Translations under genes and position numbers: made by a program
DNA from: a bacterium
GTDB lineage: Bacteria > Krumholzibacteriota > Krumholzibacteriia > LZORAL124-64-63
Direction: 5' to 3'
Assembly (NCBI GenBank): GCA_024231905.1
Contig: JAAEQC010000102.1
Span: forward strand, 80,033-144,032
DNA: 64,000 bases
Shown: positions 51,177 through 55,591 of the stretch, piece by piece
Position numbering within the stretch: position 1 is the stretch's first letter
How the letters are laid out: each line of letters opens with the position of its first letter
The notes under the pieces: generated by a model
The model's database searches: none
Seen by the model: only the letters and a program-made list of their open reading frames with translations
Told to the model about the DNA's origin: nothing

Positions 51177-52130
51177 TCAGAGATCGAAGGCCCAGCCCAC
51201 CGTTACCGTCAGCATGTCGTTGGTCGGTTGGGGATCGACGGCGCCGCTGCTGCGGTGGTGGCTGCGCACTTCGGCGGTGGCCCGGCCCGACCGGACGCCC
51301 ATGCCGATGGCGGTGCCGAGCCAGGAATTCTCCCGGTGATACCAGCCCAGGCCCAGGCTGACGAAGGGCTCGATGCCGCCGGCCGGCAGGGTGACGCGGG
51401 CGGTGGCGCCCGCGTGGCCCGTGTCGTGCACCGAGGCGGCGCGGCCGCTCCAGTGCTCGCGGTAGGTGCCCAGGCGCATCCAGCCCACGTCGGGTCCCGC
51501 CTCGAGCCAGGATTTCAGGCGGCGTGGCACGAAGAGGCGCAAGTGCAGGTCGTCGTACTTGTCGCCGCCGATGTCGTCGGCGGCGGACATGCCCAGTTGG
51601 GGTTCGAGGCGCCAGGCACAAAGCGGGACCGCTGCGCGGACATCCAGGTCGTACCACGTCTCGGAACCGGATCCGATCAGGGCGCCTATGCTGCCGACGA
51701 TCGTGGCCCCCACCGAGGCGCTGCCGATGGTCATGCCGGCGAAGGGGGCGACCGTACCCTCGATGGTGTTTTCGTCGGCCAGGTCCGACGCGGCGAGAGC
51801 GAACAGCAATCCCAGAACGCCGCCGCTCGCGGCGCCGATGGTGCTGCCGGTCCGCCAGCCGCGGGCGGACGTGGAGCGCTGCTGGCGCACCAGCAGGATC
51901 TCTCCGGCGGCCAAGGCTTCGCGCGCCGGCTGTCCCGAAATCGCGGCCAGACCCACCGAGTCGCCCGCCGCCGGGGCCGGAAAGCCTGTGTGCACGGCCC
52001 CGTCGTCAGTGGTGATCTCCAGCAGAAGGCCCGGGTCCAGGCGGAGGACGCGGATCGCCCAGTCCTCGTCGGCGCGGGCGGAGGACAGGAGCAGCGGGAC
52101 CAGGAGCAGTACGAGGATCAAGCGGGGCAT
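51177..52130 (-). CDS. Hypothetical secreted/outer-membrane protein
   Basis: Signal peptide. Gly/Ala/Ser-rich middle. C-terminal beta-strand pattern ending in …VGWAFDL. Confidence 0.5.
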   Translation of the reverse strand: MPRLILVLLLVPLLLSSARADEDWAIRVLRLDPGLLLEITTDDGAVHTGFPAPAAGDSVGLAAISGQPAREALAAGEILLVRQQRSTSARGWRTGSTIGAASGGVLGLLFALAASDLADENTIEGTVAPFAGMTIGSASVGATIVGSIGALIGSGSETWYDLDVRAAVPLCAWRLEPQLGMSAADDIGGDKYDDLHLRLFVPRRLKSWLEAGPDVGWMRLGTYREHWSGRAASVHDTGHAGATARVTLPAGGIEPFVSLGLGWYHRENSWLGTAIGMGVRSGRATAEVRSHHRSSGAVDPQPTNDMLTVTVGWAFDL

Positions 52131-52263
52131 GGTAGCAACCGTTTCCAGGGGTGTGTGGGGTGGGTCGACAGCCGGTGCATGAACGCCGTTACGGTACGGT
52201 ATCGAGAGGGATTCATCAAAAAAAGCGGGGACGGCAACCGCCGTCCCCGCTTCAAGCGCCGCT

Positions 52264-53796
52264 TCAGGAATCGGTCGCGGGAGTCTCCTCCTCGACCGGT
52301 TGGGGCAGCGGCGTGTCGGTGCCCAGGAACTCGTCCCGGTGGAACTTGTGCAGCATCAGGTCCGGATCTCCATGCTCCAAGGGGAGCAGGAACTGGAACG
52401 GCTGATCGCTGCCCTGGGCCAGGAGGGAGTGGCAAAGGGTGCAGTCGTAGGGGACCGCCACGCCCTGCTCGTCCACCATGTCCGGATTGTGGCACCGGAA
52501 GCACCCGCTCTCGCCCCGGTGGCCCAGGTGCGAAGGGTAGGTGTTCCAGGTCACGTTCATGGCCGGGAAGATGTTGCGGGCGTAGATGGCCTGCACCTCC
52601 TTAACCATGGTGTCGATTTCGAGGCCGAGTCCCGTCGCGCGGTGCTCGCCGCGCCGGTAGAAGCCGCGGATCTCGTTGTCGATGCCGGACAGGGCGGCGT
52701 CCTTGTCCCGCCAGTTGCCCAGCAGGGCGTCCAGGGCCACCCGCTTGGCGAACGGCAGATGCCGGTCGATGCGGTCGGCGGATAGGGCGGCGTCCACCGC
52801 GCCCTCCGGATCCTGGTAGACGTGGGTGGCGCGATTATGGCAATCGACGCAGTCCATGGACCGCACTTCCGCCGGGTGCTCGTCGCTCCCGGTCGGCTGC
52901 ACGTTGCGGTTCGTGTAGCGGTGGAACTTGTCGCCGCGCTTCACTTCCACCCAGGTCATCTTCGTGCGACCCGGATCGGCGGCCTCGTAGCGGACCTCGT
53001 TGGACCCGGCGATGTGCCAGTGGATCGTGCCCCGGTCCTCGCCCGTGCCCGATCCCACCTTCAGGGCCAACGTCGTGTGCCGCGGCGTCGAGGTCCGGTC
53101 CGGTGCGAAGCTGTCGAATGACTTGATGCGTGTCCCGTAGAACTTGTCGGGCCAGTGGCACTTCTCGCACGTCTCCCGGGCCGGACGCAGCTGGCGCACC
53201 GGCGTCGGGATGGGACGCTCGTAGAGGTCGAAGGTGGCCGAGATCACCTGCCACAGGCCGTTCAGTTTGGCGTCGATCAGGGCGCCGGCGCCCTCACCCA
53301 CGTGGCACTCCACGCACTTGACGTGGGCGTGGGGGGAGTTCTGGTAGGCCGTCCACTCCGGTTCCATGACCGGATGGCAGGCGGTCCCGCAGAATTCGGG
53401 TCCATCCATGAAATGGAGCACGCGCGCGCCGCCGAGACCGATGAACATGAGGTTCATCACGGTCAGCAGGGCGATCATGCCCACCAGCGACGAGCCCAGG
53501 CGCTTGGCCTTGGTCATGTCGTCGGGGAATCTCTGGCTGAGCAACTCTTCGGTCGTGCGCCCGGTGGCCTGGCGGAATTTCCACCAGCCGATCGGGATCA
53601 GGATCAGGCCCAGGAGGAACAGGGCCGGCAAGGCCATGTAGCTGATGAGCCCGACGTAGGAGTTGGTCAGGATTCCCGCGATCCGCAGCAGCTCGAAACC
53701 GACGAAGAGCAGGAACGCGGAGGTCACGAAAGTGACCCCCAACGTTCCGGTCCAGTTCGTCGAGATGCCGCGGATGAAGAGCTGGAATCGCTTCAT
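52264..53796 (-). CDS. Membrane-anchored hexaheme c-type cytochrome (3 N-terminal TM helices; NapC/NrfH/ImcH-like candidate quinol dehydrogenase)
   Basis: Three hydrophobic helices in the first ~130 aa, then six CxxCH sites (CGTACH, CVECH, CEKCH, CVDCH, CFRCH, CTLCH). Begins 11 nt after the HAO-like gene stop. Confidence 0.75.
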   Translation of the reverse strand: MKRFQLFIRGISTNWTGTLGVTFVTSAFLLFVGFELLRIAGILTNSYVGLISYMALPALFLLGLILIPIGWWKFRQATGRTTEELLSQRFPDDMTKAKRLGSSLVGMIALLTVMNLMFIGLGGARVLHFMDGPEFCGTACHPVMEPEWTAYQNSPHAHVKCVECHVGEGAGALIDAKLNGLWQVISATFDLYERPIPTPVRQLRPARETCEKCHWPDKFYGTRIKSFDSFAPDRTSTPRHTTLALKVGSGTGEDRGTIHWHIAGSNEVRYEAADPGRTKMTWVEVKRGDKFHRYTNRNVQPTGSDEHPAEVRSMDCVDCHNRATHVYQDPEGAVDAALSADRIDRHLPFAKRVALDALLGNWRDKDAALSGIDNEIRGFYRRGEHRATGLGLEIDTMVKEVQAIYARNIFPAMNVTWNTYPSHLGHRGESGCFRCHNPDMVDEQGVAVPYDCTLCHSLLAQGSDQPFQFLLPLEHGDPDLMLHKFHRDEFLGTDTPLPQPVEEETPATDS

Positions 53797-53807
53797 CGCT
53801 CAGCCCC

Positions 53808-55136
53808 TTACTTGATGTTCACCTGGTACGTGCCGTCGAACATGGCCGCCAGCTTGCCCGACTTGATGTCGGCCTTGATGTCGGCGGTCGGCTGCGACAT
53901 CCACACGTGCATGGGATCGGCGAGGATCTCGTCGATCAGCTTGTCCACGTCCGGGTCGTGGAATTTGCGCAGCTCCGGGATGTACTTGAAGTAGAAGTGC
54001 TGGGCCACTTCGTAGATGCCGTGCCACCAGGTGTAGTCCGGTCCCATCATGGCCGCGCCGTGACGCGCACGACGACCCTCGTGGTGCCAGATCTCCCACC
54101 AGATCCACTCGTACTTGTTGGAGAAGTTGGCGGTGCCGTCGCCCAGCTTCTTCTCCTTGGCCAGCTTGTGCAGGGCCGCGCCCGGCTTGGCGAACTTCTC
54201 GTTGTAGAGGTGCACGAGGCCGTCGAGCTGGGCGTAGTGGCCGTCCACGAAGGTCTTGCCGTGGCAGTTGGTGCACACGTCCTTCATGTTGTCCCGCTTG
54301 GCTTCCCAGTTGTCCTTGGTCTTGGACACGGGCGGACGCAGGGTCCAGCTGATGCGCATGCCCACGTCGTGGGTCACGGCCTGGTTGCTCGTGGCCGACA
54401 TGTGGCAGGTGGCGCAAGTGGGGGCCTCGAAGTAGTCCAAGCCCACGATCCAGCGCTTGGCCTCCAGGTTCATCTTTTCCTGGTTGGTGTAGTAGGCGTT
54501 GCCGTGCTTGGACTCCTCGTAGACTTCCTTCTGCGGATGGTCCGGGCCCAGGTGGCACTTGGAGCAGGCCTCGGGCTGGCGGGCCTGCTTCACGCTGAAG
54601 GCGTGCCGCGTATGGCAGGCCGTGCACGCACCCTTGCTGCCGTCAGGATTCAGTCGGCCGATGCCGCTGTTGGGCCAACTCAAGCGGTGCAGCTTGTTGG
54701 GGCTGTTGGGGTCGATGAGCATCTTGCCGCCGTGGCAACTCTCGCAACCGGCGATGGCCACCGGCGCGCCACCGGCCGCGTGGGCCAGGTATGCGTCCTT
54801 GGAGTCGAGAATCTCACCGGCGTGGGCGTGGTAGCTGTCGCCCACTTCCTTGGCTTCCTTCTCGTGGCATTTGCCGCAGTCGTAGGGTGTGACGAGGGTG
54901 GCGATGAGGGCGCCTTCGTGCATGAAACCGTCCGCGTCACCCTGGGCGGCAGCGTGGCAGTCGATGCAGGTCACGTTGTGCTTGGCGTGCTCCGAGTCGT
55001 ACCACTGGTTGTACAGGCCGAGGCTCTTCTCCTTGTGGCAAGTCATGCACTTGCCGGCCGCCGTGTCGTCGGCGGCCAGAGCGGCGCCGGACGCCAGGAG
55101 GGCGAGGAGGCTCGCGGCGATCAGCAGCTTCTTCAT
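53808..55136 (-). CDS. Octaheme cytochrome c of the hydroxylamine oxidoreductase (HAO) family
   Basis: Signal peptide plus eight CxxCH sites (CMTCH, CIDCH, CGKCH, CESCH, CTACH, CSKCH, CATCH, CTNCH). Spacing and ~440-aa length are HAO/epsilon-Hao-like. RBS AAGGAG 7 nt before the ATG. Confidence 0.8.
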   Translation of the reverse strand: MKKLLIAASLLALLASGAALAADDTAAGKCMTCHKEKSLGLYNQWYDSEHAKHNVTCIDCHAAAQGDADGFMHEGALIATLVTPYDCGKCHEKEAKEVGDSYHAHAGEILDSKDAYLAHAAGGAPVAIAGCESCHGGKMLIDPNSPNKLHRLSWPNSGIGRLNPDGSKGACTACHTRHAFSVKQARQPEACSKCHLGPDHPQKEVYEESKHGNAYYTNQEKMNLEAKRWIVGLDYFEAPTCATCHMSATSNQAVTHDVGMRISWTLRPPVSKTKDNWEAKRDNMKDVCTNCHGKTFVDGHYAQLDGLVHLYNEKFAKPGAALHKLAKEKKLGDGTANFSNKYEWIWWEIWHHEGRRARHGAAMMGPDYTWWHGIYEVAQHFYFKYIPELRKFHDPDVDKLIDEILADPMHVWMSQPTADIKADIKSGKLAAMFDGTYQVNIK

Positions 55137-55591
55137 CGTCGGGCTCCTTGATCGGATTCGGGACGAAACTGGTTGTGAACAACCCAACAACCTTCGTCTG
55201 AACTTCACCTTGGGTCAATCCCCCTTCGGGGGGTGCGGAGGGGGTCTCCGAGTGTCGCTTGACGCCTCATCTGCTGATTCTGAAACGCGTTATCGCGATG
55301 TCATCGGTTCGTCACAGGCATGTAAGCTGGTCCTCGGTCGTATATTCCGGTCGTATCGATAATTAGGACATATGTATCTGTTACAGAAGGTTCAAATCTT
55401 CGCAATCGCTGCATAATCACGAGCCGCCATGTTCCATGATGCTTTGTAACTGTTATCGACAAGAACGTCCTGAAACGGACGCTATCTGGGACCGGGTTTC
55501 GAGGGAATCAACTTTCCGGGAGGGTTCGCAGTTGGCGGGGTGGGAGAGACGGGCATGGATTCCCCGGACCGGTCGCCGTAGATTGACCTTC
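55137..55591. promoter_or_regulatory. Unusually AT-rich 450-bp divergent intergenic region upstream of the HAO operon and the LpxL-like gene
   Basis: Local GC drop with palindromes ATCGCGAT, TATCGATA (about 55355-55362) and the motif ttgtaactgttatcgacaag (55445-55464). Confidence 0.35.

Follow-up and report, generated by a model that had tools for sequence, protein, structure and literature searches.

Pairing of predicted HAO-family and ImcH-family multihaem cytochromes at a Krumholzibacteriota locus and in related bacterial genomes

Described relatives of the gene pair

Octahaem cytochromes in the family of hydroxylamine oxidoreductase (HAO) and inner-membrane cytochromes of the ImcH family have both been described already, and metagenome surveys take 'hao' as a marker of hydroxylamine oxidation or nitrification and ImcH as a marker of extracellular electron transfer or iron reduction. 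We analysed a 64,000-nucleotide stretch (hereafter the window) of a contig assigned to the bacterial phylum Krumholzibacteriota (GenBank assembly GCA_024231905.1, contig JAAEQC010000102.1, positions 80,033 to 144,032 of the forward strand), in which a minus-strand gene pair at 52264-55136 encodes a predicted HAO-family octahaem cytochrome (protein A) and a predicted six-haem cytochrome of the ImcH family (protein B). The pairing is real, widespread and uncharacterised, and it is the obligate linkage of A to B, and neither protein singly, that is the new element. A search of open-access papers found no description of an ImcH-HAO partnership, and database annotations of A and B homologues read 'cytochrome C', 'NapC/NirT family cytochrome c', 'multiheme c-type cytochrome' or 'hydroxylamine dehydrogenase'.

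Among solved proteins, the best relative of A is IhOCC of Ignicoccus hospitalis, which is treated in the literature as an octahaem nitrite reductase belonging to the same clade as HAO and HDH. Like A, it has eight CxxCH motifs and lacks the haem-Tyr cross-link; unlike A, it is archaeal and longer (521 aa vs 442 aa), and it carries Phe at the position of W371 of A and Trp at that of Y368. To our knowledge, no ImcH-type partner gene has been reported for IhOCC. Kustc0458/0457 (HAOr of Kuenenia stuttgartiensis) is likewise Tyr-less, with an A-H-x6-W-W motif against A-M-x6-W-W in A, and Kustc0458 reduces nitrite to NO (PMC8042395), but it operates in the anammoxosome and its partner is a soluble dihaem cytochrome, whereas the partner of A would be a membrane quinol dehydrogenase. 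The epsilon-Hao of Campylobacterota (Nautilia, Campylobacter, Caminibacter), compared here by its published signature alone, shares a Trp and Met signature with A and reduces both nitrite and hydroxylamine in vitro (PMC8042395). It is joined to Hcp in the proposed 'reverse-HURM' pathway, and in Zixibacteria an Hcp gene lies directly 5' of A. Genes for epsilon-Hao usually lie by nap clusters, and the donors proposed for it are NapC/NrfH-type tetrahaem cytochromes or bc complexes, unlike the ImcH-type partner of A with its three transmembrane (TM) helices and six haems.

On the side of protein B, the ImcH family was defined by three TM helices, a membrane-adjacent CX3CH motif and 5-9 CX2CH motifs (Zhong & Shi 2018; PMC6295460), with 31.5-49% identity among its members (PMC6295460). 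ImcH holds a NapC/NirT/NrfH module, oxidises menaquinol analogues, is reducible by menadiol, has an NrfH-like structure and is reported to work electroneutrally; in Geobacter it is required for extracellular electron transfer. GSU3259, the ImcH of Geobacter sulfurreducens, resembles B in its three TM helices, the CX3CH by the third of these, the spacing of the first six haem motifs and the NrfH-like core. Geobacter ImcH has a seventh haem and partners with periplasmic carriers for extracellular electron transfer, whereas the clade of B has six haems and a haem-free C-terminal tail and is encoded behind an HAO-type gene. NrfHA follows a comparable plan, in which a multihaem quinol dehydrogenase from the NapC/NrfH lineage, held in the membrane, feeds a periplasmic multihaem nitrite reductase encoded by the adjacent gene. 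The components differ: NrfH has a single TM helix with four CxxCH against three helices and six haem sites in B, and NrfA is a pentahaem protein with a CxxCK motif against eight CxxCH and no CxxCK in A.

Assignment of the two cytochromes

A previous reading of the window, made from the DNA alone (the sequence-only reading), had described two tightly linked minus-strand genes, the first encoding a secreted HAO-type protein of about 440 aa with eight CxxCH motifs. These points were confirmed: the genes lie where it had placed them, separated by an 11-nt spacer between the stop of A and the start of B, and A (442 aa) has exactly eight CxxCH motifs (residues 30, 57, 87, 131, 171, 191, 241 and 288) that contain all 16 of its Cys residues, with no CxxCK motif. 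Composition-preserving shuffles of A gave a mean of 0.05 CxxCH motifs and a maximum of 2. The signal peptide, read from the sequence (MKKLLIAASLLALLASGAALA/A), combines a KK n-region with a hydrophobic core at residues 2-23 (Kyte-Doolittle 2.29) and an A-L-A motif.

Family membership of A is indicated by a Pfam PF13447 match of 96 bits (cut-off 21.9, E = 2.9e-27) and by comparison of the A family profile with PDB structures. The best match was IhOCC (4qo5, E = 1.5e-61), with an alignment that covers haems 2-8 and the C-terminal helices, followed by Nitrosomonas europaea HAO (NeHAO; 1fgj, E = 6.7e-26), Kustc0458 (6h5l, E = 7.7e-25), anammox HOX (4n4j, E = 3e-23) and HDH (6hif, E = 1e-16). The match to NrfA was marginal (around 1e-3), and assignment of A to NrfA, octahaem tetrathionate reductase (OTR), ONR or MccA was rejected on the absence of CxxCK and the marginal matches. 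A is thus identified from its sequence as an HAO-family octahaem cytochrome, with the IhOCC octahaem nitrite reductase as its predicted nearest solved relative. Foldseek searches with the AlphaFold2 model of A also ranked 4qo5 and 6h5l at the top, with low TM-scores because the model is poor in the haem core; the long C-terminal helices (277-328, 341-362 and 369-390) have high pLDDT in this monomer, which was modelled without haems. The Asp-His pair D199-H200 of A ('GPDHPQ') aligns to D267-H268 of NeHAO ('GVDHNN'), the distal pair of catalytic haem 4, and both residues are invariant in sets of 37 and 30 sequences. The position of NeHAO Tyr334 is taken by an invariant Arg267 in the A family.

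The sequence-only reading had made the direction of catalysis hinge on the cross-linking Tyr, and this position could now be aligned. Nitrifier HAO sequence was available as fragments, of which four C-terminal ones were used for the Tyr motif; they carry HVGLAHVNPGGWTYTEGW in the Tyr region, and Tyr467 of NeHAO, counted from the PDB alignment, falls within 'WTYTE'. The position in A was assigned transitively, by HMMER alignments through Kustc0458, IhOCC, HDH and HOX, with the C-terminal stretch of A matching Kustc0458 at E = 8.7e-4 (C-terminal sub-profile) and IhOCC at 3.2e-6. The site reads A-H-x6-T-Y in NeHAO, HDH and a HOX-like protein, all cross-linked, A-H-x6-W-W in Kustc0458, where the absence of a cross-link has been shown structurally, and A-M363-x6-W370-W371 in the A family, for which no cross-link is predicted. 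W371 stands at the Tyr467 position, and M363 and W371 are both invariant in the 30-sequence and 37-sequence sets. They match the published epsilon-Hao signature, in which Trp takes the place of the Tyr and a Met stands eight residues upstream (PMC8940962). Placing Tyr467 instead on residue 346, in 'EWI(Y/W)WELW', was discarded, being insignificant (E > 0.03) and in conflict with the significant alignments; the window protein has Trp there. The cross-linking Tyr therefore appears to be absent from A and replaced by an invariant Trp, which would make A a protein of the reductive type, like IhOCC and epsilon-Hao. Assays of Tyr-less HAOs have shown reduction of nitrite, NO and hydroxylamine but no oxidation of hydroxylamine or hydrazine (PMC8042395).

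For protein B, the sequence-only reading had proposed a novel kind of protein of 510 aa with three TM helices and six CxxCH motifs, ImcH-like and as such distinct from NapC/NrfH-type quinol dehydrogenases. The length, the three helices and the six haem sites all stood, but the sites are five CxxCH (at 161, 210, 316, 432 and 452) plus one CX3CH at 136 (C136-G-T-A-C140-H141). Hydrophobic segments begin at about residues 16-27, 46-56 and 100-109 (Kyte-Doolittle), and the AlphaFold2 model (mean pLDDT 82, pTM 0.78) places helices at 15-39, 46-78 and 103-130, with pLDDT 85-95 there. The proposed check against NapC/NirT (PF03264, an N-terminal model) gave 32.6 bits (cut-off 24.1); the NrfH equivalog gave 49.6 bits, far under its cut-off of 134, and a structural alignment of the B model with NrfH extends over 140 of 145 residues. 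With A in the HAO family, and B having real TM helices and an NrfH-like core, neither of the results that the sequence-only reading had named as refuting it was obtained (A in the NrfA or OTR clades, or B lacking real TM helices or a NapC-like fold). The claim of novelty did not survive, as six-haem ImcH homologues with three TM helices, CX3CH and five CX2CH were catalogued in 2018 (PMC6295460), and the contrast between NapC/NrfH-type and ImcH-like partners is false because ImcH itself contains the NapC/NirT/NrfH module. The likeness to ImcH, in turn, proved closer than proposed, B being placed within the family itself.

This placement of B draws on several comparisons. GSU3259 has TM helices at 13-35, 45-67 and 100-122 and haem motifs at 132, 156, 205, 311, 428 and 448, spaced as in B, plus a seventh at 486 that is absent from B. 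An open reading frame (ORF) of locus L065 that matches the catalogued ImcH homologue OFW24447.1 by length and motif positions is 39.9% identical to B over residues 18-458. An exhaustive search found B homologues in 585 clusters at 50% identity (E < 1e-30); a look-up of cluster-member names returned no ImcH label, and an exact-sequence look-up of B among contigs returned no match. Most of the best 150 representatives carry CGxxCH and the six-site core, and the 5+1 haem pattern is common to 119 of 120 close homologues. Together with the six sites of B itself, this pattern places B in the six-haem subgroup of ImcH, and we conclude from its sequence that B is a six-haem ImcH-family member, a known kind of protein. 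A 40-sequence alignment shows no substitution at F135, C136, G137, C140, H141, M144 or K177, in the haem motifs or at five candidate distal His residues, and conservation of Q183 is at least 90%; K177 and Q183 parallel the quinol-site residues K173 and Q179 near haem 1 of GSU3259 by the +4 offset shared with the haem motifs, and not by an alignment to GSU3259.

Residues 466-493 of B (window about 52318-52401) form a conserved, haem-free C-terminal tail with a conserved His near 483. It sits where Geobacter ImcH has its seventh haem, in a region of low AlphaFold2 confidence, and could be a docking element for A.

Pairing across genomes and proposed function

A scan of a genome collection with the B alignment returned 80 loci. 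In all 23 testable loci with a B homologue at least 47% identical (22 and L001; testable meaning that the locus contains upstream DNA), A lies directly upstream, at a gap of 15-273 nt (mostly 16-60 nt), and these A homologues are 60-81% identical to A. By contrast, A is absent from all 56 loci with ImcH homologues of 35-43% identity. The paired loci come from metagenome-assembled genomes (MAGs) labelled Krumholzibacteriia, Zixibacteria, Ignavibacteria, Calditrichia, GN15, Thermoanaerobaculales, Holophagae, Bacteroidia, Neomarinimicrobiota, Delongbacteria and Cloacimonetes, among others, with about 11 named lineages in all. Among 72 testable A-centred metagenome loci, 46 (~64%) have an ImcH-like gene downstream, which is a close B directly downstream in 41 and a divergent ImcH-like gene (three TM helices, 5+1 haem) in 5. 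Across 54 full-length pairs, percent identity to the window protein correlates between A and B (r = 0.83), with A about 15 points more conserved than B. Shadow ORFs aside, A and B alone are conserved in these neighbourhoods, and no third gene is conserved in all loci.

Two sets of metagenome loci stand apart from the close pairs. In L139, L147, L148 and L150, an A homologue of 58-63% identity precedes a divergent ImcH-like gene 31-37% identical to B, so that the HAO-ImcH pairing may predate the close B clade or reach beyond it. Partnerless A homologues (L111, L119, L121, L124-L131, L135, L136, L140, L141 and L154-L163) have no quinol-dehydrogenase gene nearby.

Genes that adjoin the pair in some of the related loci belong consistently to families linked with nitrite, NO or hydroxylamine. 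Two Zixibacteria loci (L083:5348-9839 and L005:2-4307) share the order Crp/Fnr regulator, ferredoxin, NapH-like membrane FeS protein, hybrid-cluster protein (Hcp), A and B on one strand, with the Hcp directly 5' of A scoring 840 bits against a cut-off of 367; this order suggests an Hcp-linked N-oxide regulon. Hcp also lies near an orphan A in L124:4253-6975. DUF438-hemerythrin-PAS_10 and DUF1858/DUF2249 genes adjoin the pair in L015:1534-3314, L116:5712-7462 and L120:5249-5359, and the DUF438-hemerythrin-PAS_10 protein weakly resembles the iron-sulfur repair protein RIC/YtfE. About nine related loci carry Crp/Fnr regulators and about eight carry NapH-like proteins. Of 87 loci, 28 have an FNR-like box 5' of A, roughly twice the 13 expected from shuffles, although no FNR, CRP or HcpR-like operator was found 5' of A in the window. 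No sulfur or metal-reduction genes recur beside the pair in the related loci. Taken together, these sporadic neighbours point to nitrogen-oxide reduction as the putative function.

A PF13372 (Alginate_exp/AlgE-like) outer-membrane beta-barrel of ~410-440 aa lies directly 5' of A or 3' of B in 20 loci (L004, L006, L010, L013-L016, L025, L082, L085, L089, L097, L104, L108, L120, L123, L126, L140, L143 and L145) and is absent from the window; it could serve facultatively as a third component, for instance as a porin for the substrate. Two further genes were seen 5' of the pair in single loci, a 629-aa MtrC/c7-like multihaem cytochrome in a Calditrichia MAG (L009:2597-4486) and a cytochrome c assembly gene of the CcsA/ResC type in a Delongbacteria genome (L023:2857-4467).

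That B oxidises quinol and feeds a secreted, reductive HAO-type A appears very likely as an architecture, and the substrate of A is somewhat favoured to be a nitrogen oxide. We consider it reasonably probable that the two genes form an operon for a periplasmic reductase of nitrite, hydroxylamine or NO that depends on quinol, comparable to NrfHA but assembled from other parts; the sequence-only reading had likewise proposed a quinol-linked nitrite or hydroxylamine module, and this is still the best-supported interpretation. The sequence data show to which families the two proteins belong, how many haem sites they have, their predicted topology, the lack of the Tyr by alignment, the operon and a strict synteny in which A and B co-evolve over many lineages; the electron transfer from B to A, quinol as the donor and the identity of substrate and product are what we infer. 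The three helices of B would lie in the inner membrane, with menaquinol oxidised beside the first haem (CX3CH), which invariant Lys177 and near-invariant Gln183 would flank. The protons of menaquinol would be released to the periplasm and the electrons would run through the six haems of B to A, which would use them to reduce a small nitrogen oxide (candidates being nitrite, hydroxylamine and/or NO) at an open-coordination haem 4, with ammonium or a less reduced species as the product. As the haem-Tyr cross-link is what tunes HAO to oxidation, its predicted absence from A implies that A should work reductively.

Several observations weigh against this interpretation. The substrate is predicted from sequence; a recent survey formally lists HAO-family clades beyond the nitrifier and anammox ones, the Campylobacterota lineage excepted, as having no known function, and for some of these sulfur has been put forward as the substrate (PMC9213671). 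The characterised ImcH serves extracellular electron transfer and no periplasmic enzyme. About a third of the A homologues in the metagenome loci (~26 of 72, mostly 50-66% identical) have no multihaem neighbour, and Hcp linkage is found in just 3 of ~105 loci. As the sequence-only reading had also observed, nothing else in the window is related to the nitrogen cycle: nap, nar, nrf, nir and hcp genes are absent, and the flanks are housekeeping. The AlphaFold2 model of A has a mean pLDDT of 62, falling below 50 in the haem core, and includes neither haems nor an oligomer. Finally, hhalign of the A family against the nitrifier HAO fragments ended at residue 302, before the Tyr region, for which reason the assignment of the Tyr position is a well-supported inference and not a superposition.

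Other functions for the same two proteins were weighed against these data. With B as the quinol dehydrogenase, A might reduce a sulfur compound (sulfite, tetrathionate, thiosulfate or polysulfide) or another small oxidant, as MccA and OTR, relatives in the wider multihaem fold, reduce sulfur compounds, and unstudied HAO-family clades from sediments with little oxidised nitrogen have been suggested to act on sulfur (PMC9213671). The invariant Arg267 at the NeHAO Tyr334 position would suit oxyanions of any kind, an outer-membrane porin of the anion type (PF13372) often adjoins the pair and the window is devoid of nitrogen-cycle genes. We nevertheless regard a sulfur substrate as unlikely, given that sulfur-metabolism genes do not recur beside the pair, that the recurrent neighbours (Hcp, Crp/Fnr and hemerythrin/DUF1858) are linked to NO and hydroxylamine and that IhOCC, epsilon-Hao and Kustc0458, the closest characterised relatives, all reduce nitrite and hydroxylamine. 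An electron-transfer relay for metal or electrode reduction, in which B would discharge the quinol pool like Geobacter ImcH and A would be an eight-haem periplasmic carrier, would fit B as a true member of a family needed for extracellular electron transfer in Geobacter, the MtrC-like gene 5' of the pair in one locus (L009) and the outer-membrane beta-barrel that adjoins the pair in 20 loci and may be a conduit. Here too the details of the pair argue otherwise, making a relay quite improbable: A keeps the HAO catalytic Asp-His pair, and its identity across lineages (60-83%, ~15 points over B) fits an enzyme better than a wire. The barrel is of the AlgE/PF13372 type and no known porin-cytochrome barrel, neither outer-surface cytochromes nor genes of the MtrAB/Pcc type lie beside the pair, and the distant ImcH homologues, one of them catalogued in the literature, never occur with A, so that the B clade would have diverged with a partner of its own.

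The chemistry of a quinol-dependent nitrogen-oxide reductase could also serve the detoxification of nitrite, NO or hydroxylamine under nitrosative stress in place of energy-conserving respiration. Stress-type genes (Hcp, RIC-like hemerythrin/DUF438, DUF1858 and Crp/Fnr) are linked to the pair in Zixibacteria and others, the pair stands mostly alone without nap or nar genes and ImcH-type quinol oxidation is reported to be electroneutral; on the other hand, very wide conservation and a dedicated quinol dehydrogenase recall the respiratory NrfHA. Sequence cannot tell the two roles apart, and we hold detoxification to be a minority possibility, rather doubtful as the main role. Reversal of the module, with A oxidising hydroxylamine or hydrazine and B reducing quinone in the manner of the nitrifier hydroxylamine:ubiquinone redox module, would agree with the JGI label 'hydroxylamine dehydrogenase' given to homologues and with the architectural parallel to HAO plus cM552. 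It is made extremely improbable by the invariant Trp in place of the cross-linking Tyr, by the finding that Tyr-less HAOs tested to date oxidise neither hydroxylamine nor hydrazine (PMC8042395), by the absence of amo, hzs and c554 genes and by the hosts, which are anaerobic, sediment-type lineages.

In the ~11 named lineages, mostly of uncultured bacteria of sediments and the subsurface, a discrete ImcH clade is always tied to a Tyr-less, predicted reductive HAO. We suggest only tentatively that A-B is an unrecognised and widespread respiratory module, in which a menaquinol dehydrogenase of the ImcH type is dedicated to a nitrite or N-oxide reductase of the HAO type, and a main ammonifying or NO-handling route in uncultured phyla of the FCB group and in Acidobacteriota. 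If this were true, many 'ImcH' hits would be no evidence of metal reduction and many 'hao' hits no evidence of nitrification, and the PF13372 porin could be a third, substrate-uptake component. A module that reduces nitrite, hydroxylamine or NO would be an NrfA-independent route of nitrogen retention or NO turnover, misassigned by annotation pipelines in both directions. The pair also offers a clonable two-gene target for giving function to HAO-family clades of 'unknown function'.

Gene starts, operon signals and flanking genes

Coordinates of the genes and of the candidate signals around them are collected in Table 1. The preferred start of gene A is the ATG at 55136, preceded by an AAGGAG site whose context, AAGGAGCCCGACGATGAA, is kept in the relatives L002, L084 and L086; a longer reading from a GTG at 55208 (466 aa) is less likely, as it has no AAGGAG-type site. 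The terminator after gene B is strong, with a GC-rich 14-bp stem (10 GC pairs) followed by TTTTTTT, and lies 11 nt after the B stop codon. The promoter candidate is weak (1 site vs 0.5 expected in a consensus scan). A near-palindrome between this candidate and gene A occurs once in the window and is not shared by close relatives upstream of A; it might act as an operator or form a hairpin in the 5'-UTR.

Table 1. Features of the A-B locus, in window coordinates.
Feature	Position	Strand	Remarks
Gene A, secreted octahaem c-type cytochrome, predicted HAO family	53808..55136	-	442 aa
Predicted Sec signal peptide of A	55074..55136	-	residues 1-21, cleavage after ALA; read from sequence
Gene B, predicted inner-membrane six-haem cytochrome c, ImcH family	52264..53796	-	510 aa
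Ribosome-binding site AAGGAG	55144..55149	-	7 nt 5' of gene A ATG
Intrinsic terminator closing the A-B operon	52222..52253	-	directly after B
Candidate sigma-70-like promoter ATGACA-16-CAGAAT	55277..55304	-	~140 nt 5' of gene A
Near-palindrome GGTTGT-TC-ACAACC	55171..55184	-	35-48 nt 5' of A start codon

A and B are the only ORFs of the 64-kb window with at least two CxxCH motifs. The flanking genes, all unrelated to A-B, encode a glycosyltransferase, AlaRS, an outer-membrane beta-barrel protein, a nitroreductase-family protein, DJ-1/PfpI, a lipid A acyltransferase, a PD40-repeat protein and a sodium:solute symporter. Just 3' of the A-B terminator, a 317-aa ORF with a signal-like N-terminus (51177-52130, minus strand) has no Pfam or NCBIfam match, and L002 and L003, the two genome loci closest to the window, are alone in having a homologue of it downstream.

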